This document shows, in pieces, positions 12,773 through 47,018 of a stretch of 64,000 bases of DNA (position 1 is the first letter of the stretch; each line of letters starts with the position of its first letter). The notes below the pieces were generated by a model. That model was not told the origin of the DNA. It did not search any database and worked only from the letters and a program-made list of their open reading frames with translations. The DNA lies in IMG/VR virus record IMGVR_UViG_3300020398_000005, positions 1 to 64,000 of that record; one strand, written 5' to 3'. Both the position numbers and the translations under genes were made by a program. Origin of the DNA: an uncultured virus (IMG/VR IMGVR_UViG_3300020398_000005). Its lineage: Duplodnaviria > Heunggongvirae > Uroviricota > Caudoviricetes.

Positions 12773-13186
12773 TTATAGACTTAACAGAACTTTGTCTATC
12801 GCACCGTGTGTAAGCTTGAGATCAGGTATCTGTAAACTGTCAGTGCTTATGTAACTTCTGTCTTGCACAAAGCGTAAGAATGTAAAGTTACCGCAGAAGG
12901 TAAATGCCGCAACGCCAGACTCAGGGTCATCGTTTAACGGGAATTCGATGAAGGCGCCGTCACAAGAACACGTATAGCCTCGTAACGTTATATCAAACCA
13001 ATCGTCGTCGTCTGGGTTTAGTGAAAGGGTGCCTTGTATCTTTATACGGCCTATGAAATCCTGATAGTGGATAGACACGGTGTGCAGGCCATCTACACTA
13101 CCGTACCATCCGTCAGCGCGTACACGCTCACCTACATAATTCCATTCTTGACCTGTATTAGATGTAAGAAGAACGGGTTGTCTCAT
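12773..13186 (-). CDS. Hypothetical phage protein (DGWYGxxDGLHTV motif), probably late
   Basis: 137 aa, first gene of the structural block, with CTAAATA upstream. Confidence 0.6.
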   Translation of the reverse strand: MRQPVLLTSNTGQEWNYVGERVRADGWYGSVDGLHTVSIHYQDFIGRIKIQGTLSLNPDDDDWFDITLRGYTCSCDGAFIEFPLNDDPESGVAAFTFCGNFTFLRFVQDRSYISTDSLQIPDLKLTHGAIDKVLLSL

Positions 13187-13239
13187 TGGGTATCCTACTA
13201 GAAAGTTTTATCTTTCCAGTATTTAGTGATACCATTTTA

Positions 13240-14085
13240 TTAGCTGGCTACTAGGCCGTATTGTATTACCGCTAGTGTTAGTGATTCTTTCGGGATTCCT
13301 AGTACGGTGATATCGTCTAGATGAAGCTCGATGGCATCACGTAGTTCGTTAGGTAGTTGCCCTTTGTTCATGTCATGATCCATGATATAACAACCGTAGC
13401 GATAGAAGTCCATTAAATCAGCTTTGGATGGCATAAACACAGGCTTGCCCATAGTGATAGTCCAGCCTGTACTTTCTAATTTAGATTCAGTCATACCATT
13501 ACAACGACTGATCACAGTGTTAGGTATACCGATAGTGGTCTCGTCACGGACTAGTTTCACCACCGTCTCGTAGTCTTCTTTAAAGTTAAGCACAACAATG
13601 GCGTTGGCCATTCGCATACATATCTCGTCATTGCGCTTATCATTATGAAGTCCAAATGTACGGTAATGTGCTATGATATAGAAGCTGCCTGAATCAGGAT
13701 CCAGCTTTAAGATGTCGAGTGTACCGTTCATCATACGCAGGTAATACTTTTCGTCACCGTTTTGGTATGCAACATTACCATCAACGCCGGTATTCACATA
13801 CATTAAGTCGGATGCGATTTTTAATTTGCCGTCGAAGTCGTCTTCCCGTACTGCCGCTAAAAAGGTTTTAGAACTGCGGTACATCTTTACGCGCGGTGAT
13901 TTGAATTGTTGCTCAATCACATATGATGCGCCGCGCACCCACTTTTCTACGCGTGCGGTGTGGTTCTTCAAATCTAGTACCTCTGCAGGTGATAGATAAG
14001 AAGTCTCCTTTTTGTGCACGTCGAGTAAGGTAGTCAAGCAAGCAATAAACGACGGTATCGATTTTGTATACTGTTTTTGATGCAT
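13240..14085 (-). CDS. C-terminally tagged array protein (ends IPKESLTLAVIQYGLVAS)
   Basis: 281-aa ORF with C-terminal motif; no recognisable domain. Confidence 0.8.
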   Translation of the reverse strand: MHQKQYTKSIPSFIACLTTLLDVHKKETSYLSPAEVLDLKNHTARVEKWVRGASYVIEQQFKSPRVKMYRSSKTFLAAVREDDFDGKLKIASDLMYVNTGVDGNVAYQNGDEKYYLRMMNGTLDILKLDPDSGSFYIIAHYRTFGLHNDKRNDEICMRMANAIVVLNFKEDYETVVKLVRDETTIGIPNTVISRCNGMTESKLESTGWTITMGKPVFMPSKADLMDFYRYGCYIMDHDMNKGQLPNELRDAIELHLDDITVLGIPKESLTLAVIQYGLVAS

Positions 14086-14087
14086 AA

Positions 14088-14954
14088 TTAATCCACTACT
14101 TGGTACTGATCCTCAATACCGTTTAATTTGACTTGTGCTATTATATTGTTTTTAACCTCGTCGTCAAGGTTTTTAACGCGGCCAAGCTCATTTATGTTGA
14201 TAGTTTGGTTATAAGAATATCCGTGATCGTTTAATAGTTCGCTTGTCTTTGGTTTTGCCACATCACTTATGTACTCTACGGTGCTATCAAGCAACGGACC
14301 GTAACGTCTGAGTACCAGCCATCCTTTCTTATACTCGATACCATGAGTCCCAAAGCTATGGTCTATCAATGCCAGCTTCGAGTTACCGTCAGTGATATCA
14401 CTATCCGGGACTTCTTCACAGTATTGAATTGTATCAACACGACCCGTCTGCGCGACAGTATGGTACCGCACAAACTTTCTGTCGCTGCGCACTACTAGCG
14501 AACAATTACCGACTGTGCCTTTGACTGCGTGTATCTCATAGCTCGGACTGTCATCAACACCTGCCGGTGTAAGATTCATTTTGGTAGACACGTCTGGACT
14601 GCCTGCTCGGTCGGCTGTGCGCGTTATTGTTATGAAGCATTTCCCGGACTCAGGAAACCCGGTGCTAATCCTCATGATACGCCGTATGGCACTAAATGCG
14701 ACAACGTTTATCTTTGCGCCGGAACTTGTGGTGAATTTAGACTTAGTACCACGCAATATTGGCTCATTCAATTCGTTCCATTCAAACTCGCTTTCTACAT
14801 AGTCAAAAAATAGGTTAGCAGCCGTGTTCACTTGTACTATCATGTGGCGCAGTTTGGCAGCATCTGTAGCCGGGTGTTCTAGCGAAAATACCGTTTCAAG
14901 TCTCCTAACAATAATCTTTAGGTTAGCTTCGGCGATATCAAGAATACTTTCCAT
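14088..14954 (-). CDS. C-terminally tagged array protein (LDDEVKNNIIAQVKLNGIE...)
   Basis: 288-aa ORF with a variant motif. Confidence 0.8.
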   Translation of the reverse strand: MESILDIAEANLKIIVRRLETVFSLEHPATDAAKLRHMIVQVNTAANLFFDYVESEFEWNELNEPILRGTKSKFTTSSGAKINVVAFSAIRRIMRISTGFPESGKCFITITRTADRAGSPDVSTKMNLTPAGVDDSPSYEIHAVKGTVGNCSLVVRSDRKFVRYHTVAQTGRVDTIQYCEEVPDSDITDGNSKLALIDHSFGTHGIEYKKGWLVLRRYGPLLDSTVEYISDVAKPKTSELLNDHGYSYNQTININELGRVKNLDDEVKNNIIAQVKLNGIEDQYQVVD

Positions 14955-15787
14955 TATTTTAAGTCTCCCCTAAGACGCAATTTCGCTATAGTTGCAACCT
15001 TTTCTTCATCGGATAAATTGTCAATCTCCATGAAGCGATTGGCGCCTACTATGACACGGTACTGGTTGTTAAATACACCATCCAAGTCGCCTGCGACAGA
15101 GGTCAATAACGGTACCACATCCGGTGTTATCTCGTCTACTATTCTTAACTTACTACTGTCCGCATGCTTAGTCACCAACCACCCGTTGATGTGCTTGACC
15201 GGAAGAGCCGGATCCTGCGGGTAGACTGCGCAACATGACACCGGCATGCCTCGTTCATCTTTGTCCGGCTCTTCTATCCTGTATACCAAGAGTGAAGTGT
15301 CTCCCATATACATGATGTGTGTTTCACCTGGGCTACGTAATACGACTGATGCACCGCGGTGCGGTTCGCGTGCTACAAAGCATGATATATTGTTTCCAGT
15401 AGATTCAAACCCGTATAAGGTAATCTCTGAATCCATAACGAAGCTTACTATACGGTCTGGCTTGTAAGTGTAATCAGGCGGCACTGTGCTATGCGCTGCG
15501 GCGATTACATTCGCAGTAGTAAAACGGTAATAGTCAACTGTTTTTCTAAGCGTGGTGAGTGACTTGCTGGTAAAATATGCGGTGCCTTGTATATCACCGC
15601 GTGTCACGTCCCAGTACATGGTACCCATCGAATGCAAGGCAGTAACGCACCCAATTAAATCAAGAATGGTACCCGATATGGTATCTTTGATAGTTGTGCT
15701 TTTTATTGTAGCTAGCGAATCTTTGAGTACAGCAGGGGCTTCAAGAACTGCCTCTGCTATTACTCTATCCATAGACGTAGTAGTCAT
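14954..15787 (-). CDS. C-terminally tagged array protein (LSDEEKVATIAKLRLRGDLK)
   Basis: 277-aa ORF; shares a GWLV segment near the C-terminus with 14088-14954. Confidence 0.8.
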   Translation of the reverse strand: MTTTSMDRVIAEAVLEAPAVLKDSLATIKSTTIKDTISGTILDLIGCVTALHSMGTMYWDVTRGDIQGTAYFTSKSLTTLRKTVDYYRFTTANVIAAAHSTVPPDYTYKPDRIVSFVMDSEITLYGFESTGNNISCFVAREPHRGASVVLRSPGETHIMYMGDTSLLVYRIEEPDKDERGMPVSCCAVYPQDPALPVKHINGWLVTKHADSSKLRIVDEITPDVVPLLTSVAGDLDGVFNNQYRVIVGANRFMEIDNLSDEEKVATIAKLRLRGDLK

Positions 15788-16530
15788 ACCATCCCCTGTA
15801 TACGTAACATAGGCAGTGCTATATTATTGGCTAGTAAAGGTTCATATGTCGCTACTACTGATTTCAAACTATAGTACTCCACCCGCTCAATCAACCACCT
15901 GTGAACTGTCTTTAGTTCAACCGAGTCGCTGATTTTTTTCTTTTCCTGTGTTACTGCGTTGCTGTCTAATGTGTTGAAATCAAATTCAGTAGACCACGAC
16001 ACCCGATCAACATCACGGTTTTGCTCAGACGTAATTTTAATAAAACCTTGCTCCGTTGTTCCGATTGTGTCTGTCACCGTAAACGAACCGTGGTAGCCGT
16101 GAGCCGGCACCACAAGATTATAACTAAGGTAACGATCACGTTCCATATCTTTAATGATGAACTTGCTATTGTTTAATAAAGCAGTGTACTTGAGCGCCCC
16201 TCTACTATAAAGGTTAACTACATGGCTAGTAACTGTTCCGCGCTTGTACTCCACATCGTATTGGGTAACAGGAGGCTTTGTTTGCTTAGCCGAGTTTCTA
16301 AGGCACCTATGATGCATGTGCATCATCATCGCAACCATTGGACGTTTCTGCTTGTTGTGAAAGTTAAGGAACGCCCAGCGCACGAACAACATTAGACGCG
16401 ATTCGTCTGAATTTGGCAGAGACTTTAATGGCTTTCTAAAGCTGCGCGTTTTGTTATGCGCCGATGCTTGATAAGCCTTAGTCGGCAAATATACGTCGTC
16501 CCATATATGATTAATCATCTCATATCCCAA
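15784..16530 (-). CDS. C-terminally tagged array protein (NIALPMLRIQGMV)
   Basis: 248-aa ORF; true start probably the ATG in the ATGA overlap (MINH). Confidence 0.8.
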   Translation of the reverse strand: MGYEMINHIWDDVYLPTKAYQASAHNKTRSFRKPLKSLPNSDESRLMLFVRWAFLNFHNKQKRPMVAMMMHMHHRCLRNSAKQTKPPVTQYDVEYKRGTVTSHVVNLYSRGALKYTALLNNSKFIIKDMERDRYLSYNLVVPAHGYHGSFTVTDTIGTTEQGFIKITSEQNRDVDRVSWSTEFDFNTLDSNAVTQEKKKISDSVELKTVHRWLIERVEYYSLKSVVATYEPLLANNIALPMLRIQGMV

Positions 16531-17342
16531 TTTAATAATGCGTTACTTATTACTTCTTTTGAACAGAAGCCTCGTACCAATACCAATAAGTCACGTATGT
16601 TACCGAACGTCCTTATTTCATCACTACTGTCACGGTAAATCCACATAGAGCTAGTGAGTGTGAATTCTCCAGTATCGGAGTCATACGCGTAAGAGTGGTA
16701 ATTCTTATCTAGTGTGTTCCAGTCAATTACCGTAGTCCATATCGAGTACGACACCAACTTCGAAGGGAACCCGTCTCTAGTTGTGCCTTTATAGTTCATA
16801 CGGTAAACTGACGTTTCTTTATAGCTGCGCCTAGAAGTAACAGTAAATTCCATTAGCCCTGTGCTAAACAGGCCACCTCGTATGAATTCTACCAAGACCA
16901 CAGCAAAACCATCACCGGTAGCCATTTCTGTTAACGTTACGCCCCTATGCGTCGAATAATACACATTGTATACAAGTCGATCCTTAAAGTAAACATCAAT
17001 ATCAATGCCATATTCTCTAGCAGTCTGGTAGTGTACCTGTACCGTAATGTGGTAGTCGGTGTTGAAAGAAGTTTCTTCTTTTCCTATAGTCGTATTCATA
17101 ACCTTTTCGACTGATCCGCCACCGCATACTGCATAAAAGGACTTGAGCATGCGTTCTTTTAAGAGCCATGTACTGAGCGCGATGTCAGAACTATTCCCTT
17201 GTTTATTCTTCCTTAGTAGTGCACGACACACGGCGTACCAGGTTTTGCCATCTAATACTTGACTATACACATTATGCGAGTTCGTGGCGTGTTCGTGCAT
17301 TGTAGAGAACAAATTACCAAACAGTTTCAAGTCAACATCCAT
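16515..17342 (-). CDS. Array protein with degenerate tag (CSKEVISNALLNWDMR)
   Basis: 275-aa ORF; start is embedded in the upstream gene's TAT-GGA. Confidence 0.8.
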   Translation of the reverse strand: MDVDLKLFGNLFSTMHEHATNSHNVYSQVLDGKTWYAVCRALLRKNKQGNSSDIALSTWLLKERMLKSFYAVCGGGSVEKVMNTTIGKEETSFNTDYHITVQVHYQTAREYGIDIDVYFKDRLVYNVYYSTHRGVTLTEMATGDGFAVVLVEFIRGGLFSTGLMEFTVTSRRSYKETSVYRMNYKGTTRDGFPSKLVSYSIWTTVIDWNTLDKNYHSYAYDSDTGEFTLTSSMWIYRDSSDEIRTFGNIRDLLVLVRGFCSKEVISNALLNWDMR

Positions 17343-18276
17343 ACTGTAACCTCATCATAGCCATATCTTCTTCTGGCATTAATACTGTCCCGAGTTTTTC
17401 CTGTTCCACTAGTATGCGGCCGATGTGCGTACGCACAGAGTCGTAGTCGTGCGGGTTGCTAGCTGTAAGCAACCCAGACATAGAGAAGCAATCTATCTCA
17501 AGCCCATTATCATCCCGGCGGTATCTTATCGCGCCTGCGCGGTATAGCCCCTTCGCCACAATAGTGCCAGTGCCATTAACACGGTAAGCAGAAAATACCG
17601 GCCTATTAACAACGATTTCTCGCATGCACAATGACGCTGCCGCAGGACAGACTATCGGTATACTACTGAACGGCACTGTGAACTTCGCGGTGACTCGTAA
17701 GGCTAGTGTATTAGCGTCTTTTAAGAAAGGCTTCTCAGAAGGTATTGCGGCCTCTACGTGGTCGCAATTATAACCATCATGACGCAAGTAAATGGCCAAT
17801 TGCTTGATTCTTTCATATATCGGGATAGCTGGATGGCCGGTAATCGTGTACTCGATACTAGACGTTCTCACTATGCCATTCGGGGTTTTTCTGCGCAGTT
17901 CGACAGTGACTGAGTAACTTGCCTCTATACTAGTACTAACATTCGCAACGTACCGCACTTCAGCTAGGTAGTTCTTGCTAATTTGCCAGGCAACCGTCAT
18001 ACCGACATCAGCCCAATTGGCCTGTCTGGACCTTATACTAAAAGTACCCAAGTCGTTTAGCATGAAAGCTTCGTTCAAATTCTTGTAAACGGATAACTTA
18101 TCTGCTATCGCGGCTATCCCGGTACCTTCATCAGAAACAAGTTTCAAAAACATCCAAAAGTCGAACGGTTCATCTGATCCTTTACCGATAGACGCGAAAC
18201 GATATAATTGTCGGTAATCATTCATTGCGATTTCAGCAATAGCAGCACTATGCCTACAAAGTGTTTCAAATACCAT
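17332..18276 (-). CDS. C-terminally tagged array protein (MPEEDMAMMRLQYGC)
   Basis: 314-aa ORF; shares an REI..RP.F segment with 18266-19126. Confidence 0.8.
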   Translation of the reverse strand: MVFETLCRHSAAIAEIAMNDYRQLYRFASIGKGSDEPFDFWMFLKLVSDEGTGIAAIADKLSVYKNLNEAFMLNDLGTFSIRSRQANWADVGMTVAWQISKNYLAEVRYVANVSTSIEASYSVTVELRRKTPNGIVRTSSIEYTITGHPAIPIYERIKQLAIYLRHDGYNCDHVEAAIPSEKPFLKDANTLALRVTAKFTVPFSSIPIVCPAAASLCMREIVVNRPVFSAYRVNGTGTIVAKGLYRAGAIRYRRDDNGLEIDCFSMSGLLTASNPHDYDSVRTHIGRILVEQEKLGTVLMPEEDMAMMRLQYGC

Positions 18277-19126
18277 AATTGAGAGCCATAATTGTTGCGT
18301 CAGTATCGTTTAGTATTCTCAGGCCTGTTTCATCTTCTGCCTCTCGTACTTCTTTTAAGTGATGCACAGGCGTCAACCAATCACCACTTAATTCGTCGTA
18401 GCCGAACCCAGCTCTTTGGTTTACGACACGACCTTCAATGTCATAGTCCACTACTGCGCGAACCGGCTTGTACGGATTAATGACATAAAATTTAGTGCCT
18501 TTAGAAAACGGATAGTTATCGCCATATACAGCAAATGGACGGCGTAGTATTTCCCTTCGCAACAGTATGCCGACGCCGGTGTATTCTTGGTTCTTTGTTA
18601 AGTAGCGCCTTGTGTATATGTTTCCCGGAACATACGCAGGTATAGCAACATACCGCGACGCGCGAAATTCAACGGCGCCGGCTTTATACACCACCATTGT
18701 TAAATGGCGTGTGGCATTTGATCCACGATCCACGGCACGGTGCCCGCCTGGCATTGACTTATGAAGACCCATAAACAAGCGTGTACGAGATGTGCGCGGG
18801 CTGAGGCGTATAACCGCATCATATCGCTTGCCGGTACCAAAATCAATACCATCTATGTATATGCCGACTGAGCGTATTCTCTCAGAGTTGCGCACGGTAA
18901 TATTCAAGTCGCACATTTTGTATTCGTACTCAAACCCTTCACCATCGCTATCCGATGCATACGGCAGCGCTTCTAATAATTTTTCAGCAAAGTATCGGAC
19001 AGTATTCATGCGCCATTCAGTATATGTTTCATTCATACAGCGCATATAGATCCGCCCAAAGTGTCGCAAGCCGGACATAATAATACCTAGTGTGTGGTGG
19101 TTGAATGCTTCGTTTTTAGAAACCAT
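18266..19126 (-). CDS. C-terminally tagged array protein (LNDTDATIMALNYGI)
   Basis: 286-aa ORF. Confidence 0.8.
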   Translation of the reverse strand: MVSKNEAFNHHTLGIIMSGLRHFGRIYMRCMNETYTEWRMNTVRYFAEKLLEALPYASDSDGEGFEYEYKMCDLNITVRNSERIRSVGIYIDGIDFGTGKRYDAVIRLSPRTSRTRLFMGLHKSMPGGHRAVDRGSNATRHLTMVVYKAGAVEFRASRYVAIPAYVPGNIYTRRYLTKNQEYTGVGILLRREILRRPFAVYGDNYPFSKGTKFYVINPYKPVRAVVDYDIEGRVVNQRAGFGYDELSGDWLTPVHHLKEVREAEDETGLRILNDTDATIMALNYGI

Positions 19127-19871
19127 TTAATATACCCATCCATATTTCTTTAGTTTCAACTGGTGCTAGCTTTCCTGTACTTTTGCGATAGGTGTTAACG
19201 AGCGACATCCGGCGTGCGAGTGTGCTTTCTTCACCATAGTCACGTAAAACACCAGACACTTCCGGTAAGTCAGTTATTTCGAGCGGTAGGCTCCATTCCC
19301 TAGTAACTCTTGTTTCACCTGTTTCGAAGTTCTTAGAACTCACTTGTATTGCAGGAATATGTGCTTTTATCGGTGCAGCATCAGTAAATGTAACGTTGCG
19401 GTATAGGTAACGTATAGTGATCTCGTCGTTTTCGTAATCAATAATAAGCTTCGAACCGCTCAATGAGGAAAACTGAATCGAAATATATTTATATCTACCG
19501 CCTCTGGACACTATATCAAGGCTTAGCGCGGGTTTACGACAAGCAGCAAGGCCGATTCGGCCTTTAAGGAATTCATGCGATACGCGTTCTTCTACGCCTC
19601 GTTTTTGATACACTGATAACTTAACTGTGTTGAAGTAGTCGCTGACTTTGCTACCGATTCGGAGGTGTGTTTGACGATTGCCTATTTCGTGCGTTTCGCT
19701 GAACACACTACCTTTTTTGACTTGGGTAAGGATACGTGCGTTGTGCTCAACTATTGCTTCAAGCTTTTCTCGAAGCGCATCGAAATCAGGTTTACGCGCA
19801 CGAGATACGGTAGGTAGTATCTCCATCACGTAACCATAGAACTCTTTAGTTAGGCCGTACATGTCAAACAT
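19116..19871 (-). CDS. C-terminally tagged array protein (VETKEIWMGILNGF)
   Basis: 251-aa ORF with AAGGAG SD and a sigma70-like promoter upstream. Confidence 0.8.
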   Translation of the reverse strand: MFDMYGLTKEFYGYVMEILPTVSRARKPDFDALREKLEAIVEHNARILTQVKKGSVFSETHEIGNRQTHLRIGSKVSDYFNTVKLSVYQKRGVEERVSHEFLKGRIGLAACRKPALSLDIVSRGGRYKYISIQFSSLSGSKLIIDYENDEITIRYLYRNVTFTDAAPIKAHIPAIQVSSKNFETGETRVTREWSLPLEITDLPEVSGVLRDYGEESTLARRMSLVNTYRKSTGKLAPVETKEIWMGILNGF

Positions 19872-19897
19872 TAAATGCTCTCCTTTATCATAAGCAC

Positions 19898-19926
19898 AAT
19901 ATACGACACAAACAACCGTTAGTAAA
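19898..19926 (-). promoter_or_regulatory. Sigma70-like promoter inside the array
   Basis: TTTACT-N17-TATATT; the same hexamers recur at 52766-52794. Confidence 0.6.
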
Positions 19927-19943
19927 GAAAGTTTTCTAATTGA

Positions 19944-20720
19944 TTATGTGTACTGTATTCTGTTTGTGAAAATCTCAGGATAAGTTAAAGGTGGTTGGTT
20001 ATATTGTATGCGCTTTTTGTCGACATAGTCCATAGCGCTGTTGAAACTACGTTCACCGACAATTGCCCATTCTTGCTGCAATAAGCGCTCGCTAGACGGC
20101 GTGTCATTTACGAAATCGGTGTTTAATACAAACTGGCGCGGTAGGTGTACTCGTAAAGGTACCCGTTCCTCCCAAAGTCTGCGCTGGGATAGGGTTTCGT
20201 AATTGGCCAGAGTTAGCCCTTCGTCAGTTAATGTCACTGAGCGAGATCCAAAAAAGTCAGACTCGGTGCGCATGCACAAACCGGCAGAGCTAAGTTCTGA
20301 TTTCTTTGTTAAGTTAACATTCATAGAAACGTCAAGAACGCGTCTATACGGGTGTGTTTTTCGTCCACGCTTGCTAGGATACGTGCGCAGTGCGTAAACG
20401 TTGAAAGACCAGTACATGCTCGCAAGGACAGAGCGACCTACACGTATTTTAAATTCGCGGCCATTGACTACCAAATTTGGTGATGAATGCTCCCAAGTAC
20501 CAGTGCTTTCATCGTTCTGGTTCCTGAGTTCAGCACAAGCCGTCGCGATTTCAACAATAGTAGTGTGCCATTTCGTGCGAAGCGCTCTCATGGTGTCATA
20601 AGTAGCTTGCGGATCGGGGCGTCTGACTTGACTAACACCGGTAACAATACCGAAGCCAGTTTTTATGAAATCAAGTGCACAGCTTTCAGCTGCCTGTATT
20701 ATTGCTTCACTAGGCTTCAC
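19944..20720 (-). CDS. C-terminally tagged array protein (LTYPEIFTNRIQYT)
   Basis: 258-aa ORF with GTG start. Confidence 0.8.
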   Translation of the reverse strand: MKPSEAIIQAAESCALDFIKTGFGIVTGVSQVRRPDPQATYDTMRALRTKWHTTIVEIATACAELRNQNDESTGTWEHSSPNLVVNGREFKIRVGRSVLASMYWSFNVYALRTYPSKRGRKTHPYRRVLDVSMNVNLTKKSELSSAGLCMRTESDFFGSRSVTLTDEGLTLANYETLSQRRLWEERVPLRVHLPRQFVLNTDFVNDTPSSERLLQQEWAIVGERSFNSAMDYVDKKRIQYNQPPLTYPEIFTNRIQYT

Positions 20721-21432
20721 AAGTTACTCCGTGTTGTAAACAAAGCATTGAGCGCTCAGCGGGGTCAGCTACGTGCTTTAATTTGTCGTATACTTGCATT
20801 GCAAGCGATCCGCCCATATAGTTTCTACCGCGCTCAACGATAGTGCTATCCGGGTGTAAGCGCCATACAGCAAGTGTCGGTGAGTCCATAAACAGTGCGT
20901 TTTTGTTTGTAACGCCAACTTCGCGTGAAATATTGATTATTTTTTCTTTCGGCGATGTTGAGTCAAACATTTTTTTATGACTTTTTTTCAACGATGCGTC
21001 AATGTTAAATGGGAAGTGGTATGTCGCTGCTTCAAGGCTGACGTGTTTAACACGATATTTGTCGTCGCTATATGAACTGAACACTGTACTCAGCTCAACA
21101 TATGCACGGTCATGCAAGTTTACTCTGCCGTTTGAACGTTCTAACATACTAATTGTAGCAGTTACTCGCACGGTGCCCGGGCGATAATCTTCAAACGTAT
21201 TGTTTTCAGCCACATCTAAAGTCAAGCAATACTTGGTACGCTTTGTATCAAGCAATGTCATCGGGGCGCCGCGGTACAGATCAGCTTTGAGCAACGTATC
21301 ACATAAACCAGGAATCAAATTAAGGATTTCTTCAGCGCCTTCGTACGATGCACTATCACGAAGTCTAAAGTGGTGACGCGCTTTGATTAACTTTTTCACA
21401 AACGTATTGATTTCAGCAGCTAATTCTTTCAT
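20710..21432 (-). CDS. C-terminally tagged array protein (ADPAERSMLCLQHGVTCEA)
   Basis: 240-aa ORF. Confidence 0.8.
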   Translation of the reverse strand: MKELAAEINTFVKKLIKARHHFRLRDSASYEGAEEILNLIPGLCDTLLKADLYRGAPMTLLDTKRTKYCLTLDVAENNTFEDYRPGTVRVTATISMLERSNGRVNLHDRAYVELSTVFSSYSDDKYRVKHVSLEAATYHFPFNIDASLKKSHKKMFDSTSPKEKIINISREVGVTNKNALFMDSPTLAVWRLHPDSTIVERGRNYMGGSLAMQVYDKLKHVADPAERSMLCLQHGVTCEA

Positions 21433-22085
21433 AAACCTTGCAACCTTGTAAGAGTAATAAGTCTAGTCTTTTCTTCGTCAGCAATGTCTAATCTCTTTAT
21501 CTGTTCAACAACACTGCCACCGCTATAATTGGAATTATAACTGATTGTCTGTTTGGTTGTCAAGCAGATTTCTGCATTTTGTGTCATTGGTATTAGCGGA
21601 AACGTAAGACCAAGTTCAGATCGTAAGTATTCATCCTCTCTAGTCCACGATATATAAGGCTTGCCTGACACATCATACAAAACAAGAGTAATGGAACTTG
21701 TACCAAATCTTGTGTCACTCATTACCACAGTAGTAGGGCTATTATGCTTTGTGATCACCGTAAGCCTACGTGTTACATGGCGCTCTTCGTCATTTGACAG
21801 TATTTGTTTTTGTATCGATAATAACTCAAATCGCCTGGCCTCTACACGAGTTGCGGGCTTACGTGCGCTCACACCTACTTTATGTGTGTCAGTATCGTAT
21901 ATGATCGCATCGCGCATCATAGTCGCGTTCGGGCATACTTCTTTCACTGCGAGGCGACTTAAGCTTTCCATCTGCTCAATAAACAATACCATGGCATCGA
22001 TATCATCTGCTCTTCTTAGTGAACGAACATTGCTGGTTACCAGCTTGCCTATGTGGTTTACAATTTCTAATATTTCATCATACAT
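21429..22085 (-). CDS. C-terminally tagged array protein (IADEEKTRLITLTRLQGL)
   Basis: 218-aa ORF. Confidence 0.8.
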   Translation of the reverse strand: MYDEILEIVNHIGKLVTSNVRSLRRADDIDAMVLFIEQMESLSRLAVKEVCPNATMMRDAIIYDTDTHKVGVSARKPATRVEARRFELLSIQKQILSNDEERHVTRRLTVITKHNSPTTVVMSDTRFGTSSITLVLYDVSGKPYISWTREDEYLRSELGLTFPLIPMTQNAEICLTTKQTISYNSNYSGGSVVEQIKRLDIADEEKTRLITLTRLQGL

Positions 22086-22860
22086 GTTGAAGCCTTAGCA
22101 ATGCGATACGAGACGGGTCAACTTTGTCTTTATTATTACCTAGACGATTGCGTATGTGTATGTCAATATCATTTCGTATGAAATACGCATTACCGCTAAA
22201 CTGTTTATCGTCAGCGCTAAATACCGATGTTTCAATTTCCGGCGATTCCAAAAACAACGGATAGCTTTCTACATTACCTACGTTACGTTTGAACTGCATA
22301 TATGCGGTGCCTGTTTGCGACAATATTTTAATAGGTAACTTAGACATACTGTACGACACACGAATTACTGATCTCGGATCAGACCCGCTCTTACCAGGCA
22401 CATTGGCTGATCGAATAGATAACTTAAATGGTTTCTTTGCTAGGTACGAGTTGGATATTGTTACCGTAAAGCCGTTGTCGCTCTCTGAATTATAAAAGGT
22501 ACTTATTGTCAACGTGATCTCGTGTATGAATACCGATAGTGACAGGCTTTCTGCCTTAAACGGATCCTTTATAAGTTGTATCTGTCTAGGGTATAAACCA
22601 GTCGAGTGTGCTAATTCAGCATAAGACATCGCTTCCACGACTTTGCGGGCTTTGTTGGCTATCGATACATGTGCGCGTCTAGTTCGCTTATACTTGCCTC
22701 TAGTTGTAGTCAGATACAACCTGTTCTTTAACACACACTCGATCAGATCTTTAGTGGTTTTCATATACCGCTTATAGCCAGGCGTGTTATCGTATACTCT
22801 ACGATTCCTAATAGGCTCATATACTCGTTGCGAGAACGTATCTTTATCCATAATGTCCAT
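22078..22860 (-). CDS. C-terminally tagged array protein (VDPSRIALLRLQHV)
   Basis: 260-aa ORF. Confidence 0.8.
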   Translation of the reverse strand: MDIMDKDTFSQRVYEPIRNRRVYDNTPGYKRYMKTTKDLIECVLKNRLYLTTTRGKYKRTRRAHVSIANKARKVVEAMSYAELAHSTGLYPRQIQLIKDPFKAESLSLSVFIHEITLTISTFYNSESDNGFTVTISNSYLAKKPFKLSIRSANVPGKSGSDPRSVIRVSYSMSKLPIKILSQTGTAYMQFKRNVGNVESYPLFLESPEIETSVFSADDKQFSGNAYFIRNDIDIHIRNRLGNNKDKVDPSRIALLRLQHV

Positions 22861-22861
22861 G

Positions 22862-23764
22862 TTAATATTGCTCTCCGAGTACGAACAATGCTGCGGTAGA
22901 CCGCTTTAGTATAGGCCCATGCATCTCTTCAACCAATTTGGCTTCTTCTAAATACTGACGCAATGTTAGCGTTATATCAAACCCGTAACGCCAACGTCTT
23001 AGGTTTAGTTTTAGTTTGTTAGTGCCTGATACCTGCACATACGTAGAAACCACAGGCACAAACGGTCTGAACAATTCTAGTGATTCGTACATCCAATGAT
23101 CCGCGGTACATAGTGCCTTATCAGTCACAGTACATGACATCATACGGACGTCTGTATGTTTATTTGCCACAAACACTATCTCGCCAATATTAGACGAAAG
23201 ACGAACCTTTCTTTCAGCTGAAGGTATACCGTCCCAGTTAGACCATAATCCAGTGCGTGCGGTTGCTGTTACCATACGGTGCTCCATATAATGCTCATAT
23301 GAAGCCCTAGACCAGCGCCTATAGAATACCGCACTTGGTCCATATAACCTTGTCTTAACGAGTTTGCTATGTTTACTGAATGTTATTTGCACCGTATACA
23401 CGACGTCGTTATATTCAATAGTAACACCGTAACTTTCACAAGTGTAATCACCATCCACGATACATACGTTAACGGGATCAACAGTGTGTATCCGCTTACG
23501 CGTCAATGTTACTTTTACGTCAGTGCCAGGCAAACGACACAAGTAAACTGGGTTGAAGTCACCTGACTTTAAGATGGCCGGGCCAATTTCTTCATCAACG
23601 AACGTTATTAAGTCGCCCAGCATCTTATGCACTGCTTTACCTACAGCGACAACGCCTACATCTTCCCGTGGACCAAATCTAAACGACACCTTTCGTCTAG
23701 TTTCAACACGTTCTTTGCGTAGGCGCATTAGGTGCGTCAGTAGTTTGTTTCCTGGATTACGCAT
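22862..23764 (-). CDS. Array protein with degenerate tag (LKRSTAALFVLGEQY)
   Basis: 300-aa ORF. Confidence 0.75.
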   Translation of the reverse strand: MRNPGNKLLTHLMRLRKERVETRRKVSFRFGPREDVGVVAVGKAVHKMLGDLITFVDEEIGPAILKSGDFNPVYLCRLPGTDVKVTLTRKRIHTVDPVNVCIVDGDYTCESYGVTIEYNDVVYTVQITFSKHSKLVKTRLYGPSAVFYRRWSRASYEHYMEHRMVTATARTGLWSNWDGIPSAERKVRLSSNIGEIVFVANKHTDVRMMSCTVTDKALCTADHWMYESLELFRPFVPVVSTYVQVSGTNKLKLNLRRWRYGFDITLTLRQYLEEAKLVEEMHGPILKRSTAALFVLGEQY

Positions 23765-24629
23765 AATTCAACCTCATCAAGGCAAACTGTTCTTCTGTTA
23801 GACGATCACCGATGCACCACTCAGCCACTGTTTCGCAAGAATTGCTTATCTCTGGCAGGGACTCGTAATCAGCGAGATACACGTTTTCTGCTATTACGGT
23901 GTTACTAGTATCGTAATACTTGTCGAAACTAGCAAACATCATGGCAGACTCTTCATTGTTGAGAATATTAGCCCCGGGGTGGTAACGACACGAGATTGCA
24001 TTAGGACCTGGGTTATCGTAGTCAAACCGTCTCATATACACTATCTGTGACCCGTGTTTATATGCAAGTGAATGTCCACGCACCCAGATCGCACATAGCC
24101 CTCTTCTCGAGGAGGCATACGCTAGATGAATAGGGCGCTCGATAGACATGTCTTTGTTTGGGCTGCTCATGTTTATAGTCAACATGTAGTCGTTTCTGGG
24201 CTGGTGTTTATAAAAGTGTAACGTGAAGTCAACATGCACATTACCAGCGACCACAATAGTTACCCGACGAGAAAACCTGTCCCGCAAAGTTACTTTGGGA
24301 TCATACTCTGCTACTTCTTCAAGTTCGACTTTGGGAATGAAATCCACGTTGTATAGCTTAGACGCAATATAAGTAGATAACGATGAGCTGCCGACAAGTC
24401 GAAACACTGCGCGTTCAACCGGGCGGCCTTCATCATCCATTACACGGTTAATACGTTTGGCTACTGCTAGGTGAGTCATCTTGCAATCGTCGGAAAGTGC
24501 ATTGCTTATAGCCTTTATGTTGGCCACAACATCATACCCAAACACGTAGGAATCCTTATAATTTTCCATCACCGTACTCCAATTTAAGTCGTATACGTTC
24601 TTCGGCTGATACGCGGGATAGTATGTCAC
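23757..24629 (-). CDS. C-terminally tagged array protein (LTEEQFALMRLNYA)
   Basis: ORF of up to 290 aa; likely true start is ATG 24569 (MENYKD) after GGAG. Confidence 0.8.
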   Translation of the reverse strand: MTYYPAYQPKNVYDLNWSTVMENYKDSYVFGYDVVANIKAISNALSDDCKMTHLAVAKRINRVMDDEGRPVERAVFRLVGSSSLSTYIASKLYNVDFIPKVELEEVAEYDPKVTLRDRFSRRVTIVVAGNVHVDFTLHFYKHQPRNDYMLTINMSSPNKDMSIERPIHLAYASSRRGLCAIWVRGHSLAYKHGSQIVYMRRFDYDNPGPNAISCRYHPGANILNNEESAMMFASFDKYYDTSNTVIAENVYLADYESLPEISNSCETVAEWCIGDRLTEEQFALMRLNYA

Positions 24630-25296
24630 TAAACTCTACCGGCGAGTCATTTAACATCCACTGTGACCTTAGTACCTGTTTCACCTTACTAAAGTCATCA
24701 ATATCGTACTGGACTGTCATAGTAGCAGGCCGTTCTAATGAATGAATGACAAAATCAGTAGTTATTTGATCTGCATTCATATTAGCCGGATTTAGGTCGG
24801 TATTACTATAATAACCATATGACGTAACACATGGCGTATGGCCGTTAACAATTTTTTTCGTACCGTTTATGTGTTCTGTGGCAAGGTTCATTGACGTTGA
24901 CGAGTTATAAACATACTTGACCGCGTTTGACGTACCGACACCTTTAATAATCATTACAGTAGGCGGCCATTTTCCTTGGCGAGACTCTTCAAGTGAGCGG
25001 GTGGCAATCGCTGCCATTGTTTCACGAGTAAACTGGGTGTGGAATGTCATACCGATACTAGTACGCGTGGCCGGACTCGTAAACATTACGCTAGTCACCA
25101 ACCTACGATTGGCACTCACAACGATGCCGTATTGTCGTTTGATTGCAGGTGCGCGGCCGTTTATGTAAGTGACTGCACAATCATGTAGAGGCGGTACGCC
25201 CACTATGGTTGTCATTGTAGTCATCTTAAAGATAAGGTCTTCAAGATTTCTAGGCAATGCAGATAAACTGGATACCGTGTCTAGCATCGTTGTCAT
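24556..25296 (-). CDS. C-terminally tagged array protein (VSAEERIRLKLEYGDGKL)
   Basis: 246-aa ORF. Confidence 0.8.
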   Translation of the reverse strand: MTTMLDTVSSLSALPRNLEDLIFKMTTMTTIVGVPPLHDCAVTYINGRAPAIKRQYGIVVSANRRLVTSVMFTSPATRTSIGMTFHTQFTRETMAAIATRSLEESRQGKWPPTVMIIKGVGTSNAVKYVYNSSTSMNLATEHINGTKKIVNGHTPCVTSYGYYSNTDLNPANMNADQITTDFVIHSLERPATMTVQYDIDDFSKVKQVLRSQWMLNDSPVEFSDILSRVSAEERIRLKLEYGDGKL

Positions 25297-25362
25297 TAAT
25301 GTTGCCTTCTTTGTTAAACGTGTATATTATTAGATTAACAAAATCGGCAACAAGACACAAGA

Positions 25363-26187
25363 TTATCCGTAATTTAATCTATATAAGAGGTATTCTGAAG
25401 GGCTAAGGTGTCGTTTAAGATAGTAGTCACCCATGCCACCGAGTGCGGATTTCAAATCACATAAATCAATCAGTGTATATGAGCTATGCACTGGTCCATC
25501 GCTGTTCGGTGGCCTATGATGTGATTCATACATAGCAAAGCATTCGTCAACTGCAACGTTTTTTACTCTACCGCTTGGTCTAAAGTCGTCATGAAGAGGC
25601 ATCCAGAGTTTAATTGACCGCCCAAACGGCATAGGCGCGTCAGTCATTTTACGACCTAATACTTTAGCCGGGTTTGGAAGATACGATACCCGTTGGTGAT
25701 AGTCACTTATGGATATAGATAATACTGACCTCCCGCTTGATATTCGCACATCAAGAGCAGGTATACCGTGTGCATGGTTATTCAGAGTGAGCTTTGTTAT
25801 GAAACGAGCGGTATCATTTGGGTTTATTAAACTAAGATATTCTGACTTATTAATCTCCCAAACCTGATCTTTACTGGTGACTGATTTTCCGTTTATCACT
25901 AAATCAGTCATAGGCCAAGCTGGTGACACAGTATCGCCGACATACCTTATACGTGCCTTCACAATTATCCCTGACAGTTCAGTGACACAAGAGTGGATGC
26001 ATTTCAAATCATTTGCTAGTTGATCAGCAAAATTACCGAAGTCCTTTTTATGACGTGTCAGTTTACGCACTCGGCGAAAACTACCCAACACGTCATCGAA
26101 GTTAGACGACAGCTCTACTTTCTTGTCACCAAATTCTGCATAACTAATCATTGCATCTCCAAGAGTGAACAGAACCTGCTTGTACAT
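25363..26187 (-). CDS. C-terminally tagged array protein (LSPSEYLLYRLNYG)
   Basis: 274-aa ORF. Confidence 0.8.
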   Translation of the reverse strand: MYKQVLFTLGDAMISYAEFGDKKVELSSNFDDVLGSFRRVRKLTRHKKDFGNFADQLANDLKCIHSCVTELSGIIVKARIRYVGDTVSPAWPMTDLVINGKSVTSKDQVWEINKSEYLSLINPNDTARFITKLTLNNHAHGIPALDVRISSGRSVLSISISDYHQRVSYLPNPAKVLGRKMTDAPMPFGRSIKLWMPLHDDFRPSGRVKNVAVDECFAMYESHHRPPNSDGPVHSSYTLIDLCDLKSALGGMGDYYLKRHLSPSEYLLYRLNYG

Positions 26188-26741
26188 TCAGGCTTCTTGC
26201 TGACTAGATTAAAACGATTCTTAATGCGCGTGATACATAGCTTGATAAGACCTGCTTTTTGGGTAACATCTTCTGAATACTCAAGACCGCGTCGATATAC
26301 AAACCCAGCATTATACGACGCAAGGGCCATAGGATGATTGCCACCACGTATGCGTAACCAGTAGTTTATCTCGTTTATGGCTAGACGCGCACCGAGACCC
26401 TGATCCATCACCAAATCTTGGGCAAGTACGTTTGCCATAAACGATTCCCTGTCTATTCCAAGACGGCTTGTAGCTGTGTCGATATGTATTGCATAAGGAC
26501 CAAAGCTAGGGTCATTTATGTTCATCAAATACTTGCCGAGATTACTTTCCCGCCACGCAATGGCAGGAAGCACAGTCTCGAGACCGTACTCCTTGCCAAA
26601 CTCGTAGCTGGTTACCAATACGTTTGCTTGATCGCTGTTTATCCTGATGTTCGCGTCACAGAACTCATCTATAGCCTGGTGCTGTGTACTACTCACAGAT
26701 AATCCCAACGTAACTCCTACGACAGCGAATATGTTAATCAT
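26148..26741 (-). CDS. SLT-family lytic transglycosylase with N-terminal signal/anchor
   Basis: AIAWRES (catalytic Glu), SFGPYAI and ALASYNAG motifs; hydrophobic N-terminus. Confidence 0.8.
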   Translation of the reverse strand: MINIFAVVGVTLGLSVSSTQHQAIDEFCDANIRINSDQANVLVTSYEFGKEYGLETVLPAIAWRESNLGKYLMNINDPSFGPYAIHIDTATSRLGIDRESFMANVLAQDLVMDQGLGARLAINEINYWLRIRGGNHPMALASYNAGFVYRRGLEYSEDVTQKAGLIKLCITRIKNRFNLVSKKPECTSRFCSLLEMQ

Positions 26742-30483: not shown

Positions 30484-30511
30484 ATTGTAGCATCTGGGAA
30501 AAGTTTTACAA
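30484..30511 (-). promoter_or_regulatory. Sigma70-like promoter
   Basis: TTGTAA-N16-TACAAT with TGn extended -10. Confidence 0.5.
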
Positions 30512-30564: not shown

Positions 30565-30586
30565 GAAAGGGGCAATTGCCCCTTTC
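30565..30586 (-). terminator. Intrinsic terminator after clpA
   Basis: Perfect palindrome GAAAGGGGCAATTGCCCCTTTC followed by a U-rich tail on the minus strand. Confidence 0.75.
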
Positions 30587-30588: not shown

Positions 30589-32844
30589 TTATTCTGCGCT
30601 GGCTTCTTCTTGCTTGGCTCGCTGCGCTTTGCGATCTAATGTCACGTTAACCACTAGTTCGTTATTAGCAACTTCTAAGCGCACAATACCGCCTTCGGTT
30701 AACTTACCGTACAAGACTTCCTTGGCAATCGGCTTACGGACCGCAGTCTTAAACAAGCGTTTAAGAGGTCGTGCACCGTACTTATCGTCAATCCCGTTGT
30801 CACGCAACCAACGAGTAGCGTCAGGTGTTACGGATACTTGGATATTCTTAGTACTCAAGTCTTGATTTAACTCAGTAATGTACGTTTTAAGGATTCGATT
30901 AATGCTAATCTCGTCGAGCGGTGCAAACACGTGAATATCATCAACACGGTTAATCAGTTCCGGCTTAAAGAAGCGTTTCACTTCCGCGTCAATTTCTGAT
31001 GTCATGTTTGCACTGCTAGATGCAAAGCCTATACGACTGCCGCTTGCTTTGGCTGCGCCCGGGTTACCGGTATAAAAGATAACCGTATTAGAGAAGTCTG
31101 CGACTACGCCTGACGACGACGTAAGCTTACCGTGATCATGTATCTGTAAAAATAAATCATATACGCTTCGGTGCGCTTTTTCAGATTCATCCATCAGTAT
31201 TACGCAAACAGGGTTTTCAGATACTTCTGTAACCAACTTACCATTCTTGTAGCGACCTTCGCCGTGGCCCTTATAGCCAGGAGGTGCGCCAATTAGTAAC
31301 GCGTCGGAGTGTTCAGCTGAATACTCACTCATATCGTAGCGCAGTAACGGCACGCCCCATTCTTCCGCAAGTACTTTCACCAGGTGTGTTTTACCAGTAC
31401 CTGTGATACCAGCAATAATACCACCGTAAATAGGTCCTTCGGAATTGTCAAGGCCAGCTTTGCGCGTTTCAATAGCTTCAACCACTGTGTCAATAACATC
31501 GTCATGCCCAAACACACGATCCTTAACACGGGCAGCAAGTGTCGACATGCTGTCACTGTCGTTTGCTGTTAAGTCTTTTTCAGGAATGCCTGTAGTCAAA
31601 CTTAGTGCGCGAGTGATGTTCTCGTCGGTTACTTCGTCTTGACCTTTAATCTTAGCGTTAATCATCGCTAAATCAAGTAGGTCAAAACTTCTGTCCGGGT
31701 TGTGCTTTTGTTGCACATATTTGGTAGCCAAATCAACCAGCTTCGGTAAGGCGGCCATGTTAAACGACACGTTATGAAAGTCTTCGTACGAGAACAGGCT
31801 CTGGGCAAGTATACGCACAGTTTCATCACGTGATGGCTCAGGCACATCAACTAATGCAAAGCGGCGCACAAGTGCTCTATCACTTTCAATTTGTTCGTAA
31901 TACTCAGCGTTAGTAGTAGCGCCGATTACTTTAATTTCACCGTTTGCTAGTTTAGGCTTAAGCATATTGCCCAAGTCAAGCGCTGAATCTTTAGTTTGTC
32001 CAGCTGACATCGCAGAGTGCATCTCGTCAATAAACAAGATAACTTTGTCCTTAGAACACAGCTCGTCAATAATTGACTTAATACGTTCTTCAGCATCACC
32101 ACGGAACTTGGTACCTGCCATCAGGGCAGCAACATCAAGTGAATAAATTTCGTAGTCTTTTAGTGAATCTGGAATTTCACCGTCTACAATTCGTTTAGCC
32201 AGGCCTTCGACGATTGCTGTTTTACCAACGCCGGCTTCGCCTGTCAAAATTGCGTTTGACTTTTTGCGACGTCCTAGCACGTGAACTAGTTGATCAATAA
32301 TGTCGTCGCGACCGACAAGCGGATCAATTTTCTCAGCTTGTTCAGTCAAGTTTACACAGTATGCGCCTAAAGGATCAGTTACGTTTGATCCAGTACCAGT
32401 TCCGGATTGAAGGGCAGGCTCCAGGATTTCTAAAATCTTTTCACGAGTAACGCCATGCTTTTTAAGATATGCGGCCGAGTGCGAGCGCTCTTCGGTAACC
32501 ATCATTAATACCAGCGATACAAGTGTCAAATCAGAATTGCCTGAAATCGCGTCTTGTGCTGATGCACGACGGATAAGTTCAATTAGGCGCTTGGATTCTT
32601 TGGGTTCAATGTCAGTGCCAGTCCATGGTGAGCGTAGCGACTCGCTTGACAAATAAGTTTCAACATCAGTGATAAGGCCGTTAAGCGTGCCTTTACAGCG
32701 CGTAACTAAATCAGTGAATGTTTTTTCTTGTGTAAGGGATAAGAGCAAATGCTCGGTAAGTAGGTATTCGTGATAGCGGCTAACCGCCTCGTTTGTAGCG
32801 CGTTCCATAACACGCTTGATGAACTGTAAGTCTTTATCAGCCAT
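30589..32844 (-). CDS. clpA: ATP-dependent Clp protease ATPase subunit ClpA-like
   Basis: Clp-N (EHLLL), two AAA modules ([31 protein letters not shown]), IGF loop, GARPL. Confidence 0.92.
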
Positions 32845-46214: not shown

Positions 46215-47018
46215 TCATCCGTAATTTAATCGCAACATAGCAAGCTCGGATTCACTGAGCTCAGTGTGTTGCGCAAATTCAAGGACATCTTTACACCAGA
46301 GACCATTATAGTGAAATTCAGCGATACTATCGCCGCTAGCGGATTCAACTACTACCGCAGGAGAGTGTGTATGATGCATTCTACCAAAACGATGATAGAC
46401 AATCCCTTCTTTGCAATCTACTGTACCCAATGAATTGACATATATTGTGCCGCCGTATTGTACCAAAGAAGGGATGCCGTTGAAAGAATGAGGGCGCCAG
46501 CGGACAGACGAAGAACGATTTTTGTTATAAGGGTGCCTACTATCCATCCCGTTTGTGTCGGCAATGAAAGTAGATAACCTTTCATAATAAACTTCAGTCT
46601 CACCGGGCGCAGTATTAAAGACGCTATGTTCGATTTTTTTGAACTCACTACCTAGTTCGTCAGTGTATACCTCCACAGTAGCATTTTTAACAGGACCTGC
46701 ATACTCTTCAATTATGGCAGCTTTACCGCCATCTCTTACAAAATTAGATCCGTTAAACCACGAGTGGGTGACAATACTGTATTCTTTTGTCTGGTTCGTG
46801 TACTTGGTAATAAACGCAGGTTCGTCGTTCTCCGACTTCACTTCACCTGTCTTGTCACGTATCCAGGTTTCTAGCACTATCTTTTCATTTATTTTCTGGG
46901 GCCTTTTTGCATCGTCGTCCATAAAAATGCTTGGTGCTATACCTAAAGTTTGAACAATGTGTTTGTTATCTGATTTAGTATACTCACGTATACTGTAAGA
47001 GTAGTTATCCATACTCAT
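46215..47018 (-). CDS. Orphan member of the C-terminally tagged family (LSESELAMLRLNYG)
   Basis: 267 aa; contains G.MHH..SPAV / RDGGKAAI segments reminiscent of phage GxLHRxDGPA repeats. Confidence 0.75.
   Translation of the reverse strand: MSMDNYSYSIREYTKSDNKHIVQTLGIAPSIFMDDDAKRPQKINEKIVLETWIRDKTGEVKSENDEPAFITKYTNQTKEYSIVTHSWFNGSNFVRDGGKAAIIEEYAGPVKNATVEVYTDELGSEFKKIEHSVFNTAPGETEVYYERLSTFIADTNGMDSRHPYNKNRSSSVRWRPHSFNGIPSLVQYGGTIYVNSLGTVDCKEGIVYHRFGRMHHTHSPAVVVESASGDSIAEFHYNGLWCKDVLEFAQHTELSESELAMLRLNYG

Follow-up and report, generated by a model that had tools for sequence, protein, structure and literature searches.

A 16-gene phage array of probable old paralogs whose C-terminal helix recurs on other proteins of group 2.2 phages

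The pairing of a variable protein body with a constant terminal handle is known from the poxvirus ankyrin/PRANC-F-box proteins, which are encoded at a multigene locus and whose partner, Skp1, is eukaryotic. The internal proteins of phage T4, which are late proteins, carry a capsid targeting sequence that is N-terminal and cleaved. Jumbo phages can contain expanded sets of paralogs, with RaK2 being described as having "nearly 10% paralogues" (PMC3622015) and Bacillus phage G as having about 35 zinc ribbons (PMC7824862). The SPO1 host-takeover module groups clustered early genes of unassigned function, one product of which, Gp53, binds ClpC (PMC6873191).

Here we describe an array of 16 genes within a window of 64,000 nucleotides from an uncultured marine jumbo phage of the Caudoviricetes (IMG/VR record IMGVR_UViG_3300020398_000005). 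The array resembles the poxvirus and T4 systems in joining a variable body to what may be a constant terminal handle, but has no sequence relation to either. Identity with T4-type internal proteins was rejected, since the array motif is C-terminal and the genes have sigma70-type sites and no intergenic TAAATA. Like the expansions of RaK2 and phage G, the array appears to comprise many diverged, unannotated, phage-specific copies; unlike them, its products are 218–314 aa long, lie below ordinary sequence detection and end in a helix that is also found on other families. It shares with the SPO1 module the clustering of (here putatively) early genes, and Gp53 offers a precedent for a phage Clp adaptor, although in SPO1 this is a single adaptor and not a family, and the accessible part of that source describes no common end motif. 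Our literature search, which left most subscription journals outside its scope, found no paper on the motif or the array, and the initial annotation knew of no matching system; supplements, notably that of PMC7824862, may list such families.

The 16 ORFs, all intact and on the minus strand, fill positions 13240–26187, and their number, sizes and ends are as first annotated. The next-longest run of 200–330-aa genes in the complete genome G001 is four. Thirteen of the 15 junctions overlap or have a gap of at most 2 nt, bearing out the proposal that translation is mostly coupled, and the remaining two are gaps of 66 and 72 nt. From the overlap pattern and the ORF in the relative G002, three genes likely start at 26151, 24569 and 16518, not at 26187, 24629 and 16530. 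As had been noted, recognizable domains are absent: searches of Pfam, PHROGs and PADLOC gave a meaningful family score for none of the 16 (best E 0.018). The genes are as follows.

25363..26187, minus strand: array gene 1, probable start 26151, 262 aa; end YRLNYG; downstream uncoupled
24556..25296, minus strand: array gene 2, 246 aa; LKLEYG plus 4 residues
23757..24629, minus strand: array gene 3, probable start 24569, 270 aa; end MRLNYA
22862..23764, minus strand: array gene 4, 300 aa; degenerate end FVLGEQY, resembling two G001 repeat genes
22078..22860, minus strand: array gene 5, 260 aa; end LRLQHV (LRLQYA in G002)
21429..22085, minus strand: array gene 6, 218 aa; end TRLQGL
20710..21432, minus strand: array gene 7, 240 aa; end LCLQHG
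19944..20720, minus strand: array gene 8, 258 aa; end NRIQYT; downstream uncoupled
19116..19871, minus strand: array gene 9, 251 aa; end GILNGF
18266..19126, minus strand: array gene 10, 286 aa; end MALNYG
17332..18276, minus strand: array gene 11, 314 aa; end MRLQYG; fastest-diverging (73% to G002)
16515..17342, minus strand: array gene 12, 275 aa; degenerate end ALLNWD
15784..16530, minus strand: array gene 13, probable start 16518; end LRIQGM
14954..15787, minus strand: array gene 14, 277 aa; end LRLRGD; full-length alignment with gene 15
14088..14954, minus strand: array gene 15, 288 aa; end VKLNGI; low-confidence model with three helices, a six-strand meander and an end helix
13240..14085, minus strand: array gene 16, 281 aa; end AVIQYG

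Scored with a leave-one-out profile, the 16 ends rank above the ends of 438 other G001 ORFs (p=1.7e-10), so the end motif is enriched over non-array ORFs, as an "RL[QN]YG" tag would demand; the literal string, however, occurs in only 2/16. Thirteen ends lie above the 95th percentile of the G001 background and three (16515, 19944 and 22862) below it, one more than the two degenerate ends originally counted. The core consists of [L/I] in all 16, then N/Q in 13, then Y/H/W in 10 or G in five; R/K precedes it in 10, and up to 8 residues may follow it.

The initial annotation regarded the genes as united only by this tag. Searched pair by pair, the 16 indeed show little mutual similarity (best E 0.001), but this does not extend to architecture. 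All 16 bodies have the layout helix, beta-meander, helix, with which the low-confidence model of gene 15 agrees, and helix-type periodicity at the front with strand-type periodicity mid-protein distinguishes them from 82 size-matched controls (p=5e-8), in a heuristic test whose deciles were picked after the sequences had been read. When the final 28 aa are left out, adjacent pairs outscore non-adjacent ones (mean z 1.08 versus 0.16; 15 versus 105 pairs; p=0.006), while all array pairs against array-unrelated pairs give p=0.055, with 11 of 120 exceeding the control 95th percentile. Genes 14 and 15 align along their length at 21–22% identity. Because of the common layout, the resemblance of neighbors and this alignment, the genes look like old tandem duplicates, and it is most likely that all 16 descend from one gene; union by the tag alone is thus probably wrong. 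Homologue searches with genes 1 and 15 returned near-strains only, so deep alignments were not obtained for these genes or for the gene at 46215 (below), and the gene-15 model (pLDDT 38), unusable for fold comparison, matched nothing in a fold search.

The tag is not exclusive to the array, being present also on five further G001 genes and on a 17th gene of the window:

46215..47018, minus strand: HRxDGPA beta-hairpin-repeat protein outside the array, 267 aa; end MLRLNYG; sigma70-like site of its own

In this phage the helix closes five genes of the HRxDGPA beta-hairpin-repeat type, namely 46215 and four in G001; the repeat is present in 46215 and in G001:133991-138114, with 135079 recognized by cap profile only. 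A profile built from 10 outside proteins having both repeat and helix picked five G001 genes as its top five matches (E 2e-7 to 5e-5), and reached E 0.77 or worse on array genes. These repeat proteins are like the array proteins in length, layout and C-terminal helix, but differ in carrying the repeat, which is not detectable in the 16 array genes (best E 6). The strand that precedes the helix weakly resembles the repeats' last strand (p=0.04 and 0.02). The array is probably kin to the repeat genes.

In a model of the last 121 aa of 46215 (pLDDT ~90 at residues 50–120), a sheet is followed by helices at 99–103 and 110–120, and the end helix is thus predicted to be ordered after the sheet. Searches with this model gave MORN rows in BFVD at E 0.02 or worse, a best PDB alignment (VIA-align) of Z 4.1 (rmsd 3.3, 63 aligned), and Z 2.9 against MORN4 (rmsd 5.1, 80 aligned); Foldseek found no match in the PDB, which rules out no family. 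A search of solved chains with the repeat profile gave no match (best E 0.16), and homologues of 46215 and G001:133991 were near-strains only. We found no Pfam model specific to the HRxDGPA proteins, which partially overlap DUF6745 (PF20530) and may have a MORN-like single-layer sheet.

The phage has ClpA, ClpP, MoxR plus a vWA-metallopeptidase and a genome >200 kb, which places it with the T4-like group 2.2 (PA5oct/Atu_ph07/Phosso-like) jumbo phages. Among them a wider form of the helix can be recognized (an acidic start, then A-M-L-[F/L/M]-[K/R]-L-x-[Y/W/F]-G), and Sinorhizobium phage Phosso (PV764938) has dozens of small proteins, mostly encoded in clusters, that end in AMLFKLxW/Y. With a profile trained on 40 Phosso ends and no others, the array ends stand out (p=1.2e-7; 10/16 above the 95th percentile). 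The small proteins of Phosso and of PA5oct (EST35_0274/0275), which have no Pfam or PHROG name, thus share with the array the same end helix by cross-scoring and a clustered gene arrangement; unlike the array proteins they are 60–160 aa long, place the helix directly after a strand, and have bodies without similarity to the array, and Phosso-type ends have F/K/W where the array has L-M/R/Y. Scored ends number 66 in Phosso, 18 in G001, four in Atu_ph07, four in PA5oct and none in GAP32, the Phosso and G001 counts being partly circular as their own ends were in the training set. The eight repeat proteins of Atu_ph07 include none scored as tagged, and the helix closes only 10 of the 145 repeat proteins from outside; one phrog_8792 protein of Phosso carries the tail, which is missing from all six homologues checked. 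The helix, optional on the repeat proteins and added to one phrog_8792 member, therefore appears transferable. Scans with DNA patterns of the tag returned either the two relatives alone or mostly chance matches (2/23 loci with small tagged ORFs), and P0103 gave no viral loci.

The array lies in a 17-kb unit, preceded there by cREC, Macro and other genes, for which we identified the following features.

30589..32844, minus strand: phage ClpA, with a TAAATA 28 nt upstream and a Clp_N domain; unsupported as candidate partner
30565..30586, no strand: terminator-like hairpin separating ClpA from the array unit
30484..30511, minus strand: extended sigma70-like site at the start of the 17-kb unit; conserved in G002
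21534..21563, minus strand: sigma70-type site (12/12) inside gene 6; both hexamers conserved in G002
19898..19926, minus strand: sigma70-like site (9/12) within the 72-nt gap; one base nearer consensus in G002
13220..13225, minus strand: TAAATA preceding a conserved 137-aa structural gene (12773-13186), where the array unit ends

The site at 21563-21534 corresponds to the promoter first noted inside the array, and the lack of intergenic TAAATA noted there was confirmed. Taken together, promoter-like sites are no more frequent than expected (38 versus 37.7). Contigs at least 99% alike cover array genes in four RNA libraries of two studies, which may contain DNA. RNA cover of the structural genes at 11000–12980 is thin and was left out of the argument. 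Of the early cargo or effector library with a shared helix originally proposed, a host-facing unit of early/middle type, with putatively early timing, and a transferable helix were supported, and the notion of unrelated cargoes was not.

G002, the only independent relative compared, has a counterpart of each of the 16 genes in unchanged order, with no gain, loss or reordering. The array genes are under purifying selection, about fourfold weaker than the constraint on typical genes: their dN/dS is 0.13–0.37 (median 0.20) against 0.055 for 190 other genes, with dS alike. The two genes that bound the 17-kb region, ClpA and the structural gene, are 117 bp apart in PA5oct. A search with the flanking gene found two loci among viral contigs and two among metagenome contigs, in both cases the same two sequences. 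An Atlas search returned unnamed clusters at 0.87–0.90, a lead only.

The best explanation, which we hold tentatively, is one very old tandem family of soluble early/middle variable binders with a common helix as handle. The array proteins would begin with helices, continue with an antiparallel beta-meander and close with a single C-terminal helix, and would be made from a single coupled message by host RNA polymerase; the variable sheets would each bind a different host target, while the constant helix would be the handle for one common, putative partner. Since array ends and quite different proteins bear the same helix, it may be a shared handle, but the three degenerate ends of 16 count against this, as a strict docking code would resist degeneration. 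In a broader form that is possible but doubtful, the portable helix would be an addressing code of group 2.2 phages read by one conserved receptor, with beta-repeat, small alpha/beta and phrog_8792 proteins and a CCA-adding enzyme as carriers and the array as 16 variable binders plugging into it, which would be the equivalent in a bacterial virus of the F-box adaptors of poxviruses; among genes exclusive to the two tag-rich phages (400 of 469 kb of Phosso covered) we found one weak match and no receptor candidate. We consider it comparably doubtful that the helix merely caps a folded domain, has no common partner and was spread by duplication and recombination at coupled junctions, whose bases also supply the next gene's ribosome site and start. 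A cap would fit the ordered helix immediately after the sheet in the 46215 model, the tolerance of degenerate ends, the mostly clustered tagged genes of Phosso, and a tag that evolves like the body (24/240 versus 566/4006 changes, p=0.08; dN/dS 0.22 versus 0.24); moreover, the next ATG lies in the tag's last two codons at 5/15 junctions, three of which use AGG for Arg. It fits poorly with the 135/145 repeat proteins and the phrog_8792 homologues that end without the helix, with a single sequence pattern across three different upstream contexts, and with the unaltered gene set of G002. That the motif is only a by-product of translational coupling, with no protein role, is suggested by the AGG-N7-ATG geometry of coupled ends, but this has a very slim chance and is largely refuted: uncoupled ends (46215, 25363, 19944 and 13240) keep the residues with other codons, the Tyr/His codons at ends not giving the next start are TAC/CAC in 6/6 (genome TAT:TAC 732:646), and the full motif is absent from the ends of the other closely spaced genes compared.

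Recognition of the helix by a Clp-type or other AAA+ protease, of phage or host, is improbable, whether as a degron limiting the life of early proteins or as the docking end of adaptors delivering host proteins for destruction. In its favor are phage ClpA with its Clp_N domain, ending ~4.4 kb upstream of the array, the presence of ClpP, the proximity of tagged genes to clpP (2.6 kb here, 0.5 kb in PA5oct) and the Gp53-ClpC precedent (PMC6873191). However, TAAATA and a terminator intervene between ClpA and the array unit, and residues past the motif mean that a free end is not needed. Tag number does not follow phage ClpA/ClpP, which are present alike in five phages, a small sample, with 66, 18, 4, 4 and 0 scored ends, and ClpAP is not favored as partner. 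The partners originally named (ClpA, MoxR, a scaffold, a packaging route) are unsupported. Still less probable is that these are unrelated cargoes which a C-terminal signal would have packaged in the virion and ejected into the host. The unit does end directly at structural genes and nine of 16 proteins are basic (pI at least 8.8; control median 5.5), but the sigma70-type sites, the lack of intergenic TAAATA and the common architecture speak against it, as do the two tagged PA5oct genes, without the ESI-MS/MS note that their neighbors carry.

In T4-like jumbo phages the majority of genes lack annotation, and one helix joins about 20 genes here and dozens in Phosso, a cultured phage whose host, Sinorhizobium meliloti, is a harmless laboratory organism, so that a single pulldown could assign a common pathway to much of this dark matter. 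As a portable handle, the helix would represent a phage addressing or adaptor system of a new sort and might serve as an engineering tag; as a mere cap, it would still be a marker exposing paralog families that lie below sequence detection.

The array and flanking proteins that we compared are 100% identical between the window, which is the opening 64 kb of a 115.8-kb viral record, and a complete 310,672-bp relative (G001). A second complete relative of 306,500 bp (G002) retains all 16 array genes in order at 73–95% identity. These 16 consecutive ORFs have the sizes and ends described in the initial annotation, and 13 of their 15 junctions are translationally coupled, in keeping with its 'mostly'. 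Array dN/dS is 0.13–0.37; its median of 0.20 compares with 0.055 in 190 other genes whose dS is equal, indicating real genes that are evolving fast rather than decaying. Part of the array stretch is present in five RNA runs from two studies, labelled marine metagenome; the four examined hold contigs at least 99% alike to array genes (one covering 15933-18224), with the proviso that such libraries can hold DNA. Nine of the 16 array proteins have a pI of at least 8.8 (control median 5.5; five repeat genes considered below, 5.0–6.1), and nucleic-acid or acidic targets are possible.

The window phage's ClpA shares 36–40% identity with those of the cultured phages Phosso (a Sinorhizobium phage), Atu_ph07 and PA5oct. 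Further genes of this kind are present:

window 43042-55939: ClpP, vWA-metallopeptidase, a further AAA ATPase and MoxR

ClpA, ClpP, MoxR and vWA-metallopeptidase are the set given for group 2.2 jumbo phages in the available text of Iyer et al. (PMC7824862). Elsewhere, three genes at window 80-2637 have nearly the same N-terminal sequence, MPIRF[RK]GPV[KR]P, and belong to a nine-member G001 family; the sequence is possibly an N-terminal tag by which fibre or decoration proteins attach. Two paralogous structural genes at window 7108-11205 have a single 695-aa counterpart in G002 (L003:11982-14069), which best matches the upstream paralogue but ends like the downstream one, pointing to deletion or duplication through recombination. 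A 236-aa G001 ORF (G001:22591-23301; L007:4591-5301) ends, unusually for a phage, in VPEP followed by a run of hydrophobic residues and a basic C-terminus, which we take to resemble a PEP-CTERM sorting signal.

By leave-one-out profile scoring, the array ends outscore the 438 other ORFs of G001 (p=1.7e-10), and 13 of the 16 exceed the 95th percentile of these; scores of 324 windows taken from inside the array proteins stay at background. A shared C-terminal motif is thus upheld, although the literal RL[QN]YG of the initial annotation occurs at only two of the 16 ends. Pairwise searches among array genes found little similarity, as had been noted, but the claim that the tag alone unites them is probably wrong, since their bodies look paralogous. 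An alignment of genes 14 and 15 runs over their whole length (21–22% identity), and adjacent genes outscore non-adjacent ones with the last 28 residues removed (p=0.006); counting against paralogy, the 120 pairs taken together barely outscore unrelated controls (p=0.055). The hydrophobic residues follow a helical period over the first fifth of the proteins and a strand-type one mid-protein, differing from 82 same-size controls (p=5e-8) in a heuristic test whose bins were picked after the sequences had been read. A low-confidence model of gene 15 (pLDDT 38) agrees with this order, placing helices first, then a six-strand meander and a closing helix. The searches run returned array-gene homologues from near strains only, leaving a common fold putative.

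Nor is the tag confined to the array. The same helix ends these genes:

window 46215-47018: HRxDGPA beta-hairpin-repeat gene
G001:133991-138114 (L013:7991-12114), minus strand: four adjacent HRxDGPA-type genes, 327–363 aa, sigma70-like site upstream
G001:85265: 145-aa gene

The five repeat proteins (267–363 aa) show a front-helix, middle-strand signal similar to that of the array. A profile of the last repeat plus helix matched 1,996 proteins at E ≤0.001; among the 150 matches listed, 145 lie outside this clade and 10 of these finish with this helix (7 identified by score and 3 by eye), a count in which some matches are possibly fragments and the ranking favours proteins with many repeats. In a confident model built on an alignment of matched repeat proteins, the C-terminal 121 residues of 46215 form a beta-meander and a short helix, the tag being helix 110–120 (pLDDT mean 77, ~90 from residue 50); by structure it comes closest to small proteins, all uncharacterised, that uncultured phages encode (four at E ≤0.001). 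Because a profile search detected no HRxDGPA repeat in the 16 array genes and the strand before the helix is only weakly alike, we infer rather than demonstrate kinship between the two groups.

Dozens of Phosso ORFs of 60–160 aa end in AMLFKLxW/Y, and a profile built solely from 40 of them gives the array ends higher scores than 432 other ORFs of G001 (p=1.2e-7).

Tagged ORFs by combined profile (Phosso and G001 counts are partly circular)
Phosso: 66 of 745; control 9
G001: 18 of 433; control 2
Atu_ph07: 4 of 871; control 2
PA5oct: 4 of 451, two convincing; control 0
W04: 2 of 964; control 1
GAP32: 0 of 566; control 1

In Phosso the tail also occurs on one protein of phrog_8792, a widespread family; it is absent from all six homologues examined (of 131 matching records). 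The Phosso CCA-adding enzyme (L105:7954-9522) has a ~115-aa C-terminal extension ending in a tag-like helix; tagged mini-genes adjoin it, and it may be a fusion with a neighbour. Two tagged PA5oct mini-genes (L132:1850-3688) lie 0.5 kb from clpP, whose record is annotated ESI-MS/MS.

The array makes up the last part of a 17-kb unit, which begins after a terminator-like hairpin behind ClpA and includes:

window 28686-30454: cREC receiver (PF20274) and Macro-domain genes, at the head of the unit
window 26148-26741: phrog_600 gene, coupled to array gene 1

The phrog_600 gene had no match in a Pfam search; by eye, its product resembles a transglycosylase of the lysozyme fold and has a hydrophobic N-terminus. 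ClpA adjoins the structural gene that follows the array in PA5oct and is separated from it by four genes in Phosso, marking the unit as a lineage-specific insertion. Sigma70-type sites at its head and within it are kept in G002, and a site scan confirmed a sigma70-like promoter in the array and no intergenic TAAATA there. TAAATA, the late signal of T4-type phages and a putative one here, precedes ClpA and the structural gene after the array, with just one, intragenic, between; ClpA looks late. PA5oct relies on host RNA polymerase, with promoters TTGAC/TATAATA, according to the available text of PMC7318152.

That the motif is a coupling artefact is barely credible. At five of the 15 junctions the last two tag codons contain the ATG of the following gene, in three cases preceded by an AGG Arg codon, but uncoupled ends keep the tag residues with other codons, so coupling makes use of the tag without accounting for it; the motif belongs to the protein and serves an additional function at the DNA level. 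A Clp degron or adaptor end is improbable: the SPO1 protein Gp53 offers an analogy that makes phage ClpAP attractive, as far as the available text of PMC6873191 goes, but tag numbers run from 0 to 66 in phages alike in having ClpA and ClpP, and the window ClpA appears to be expressed late, so the initially proposed ClpA partnership is not borne out. That array proteins are virion cargo is very unlikely. A structural cap, spread through duplication and junction recombination, is a less likely reading than a shared handle, though ahead of these; the helix behaves as a module, being present on only some members of one family and appended to others, which is the main argument for a handle over a mere cap.

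Paralog expansions are known for these phages from the available text of PMC3622015 and PMC7824862; a search of literature listings found no publication on Phosso, the end motif or the repeat family. This analysis adds evidence for array paralogy, the helix link to repeat proteins with a confident model, and evidence for one helix across several families. We regard as not quite an even bet that the array is an early library in which variable beta-sheets would act as binders and the constant end helix as their common handle; that one helix serves as a portable handle across families is a more tentative proposal. With cREC and Macro domains among its upstream genes, the unit fits a role in host conflict.
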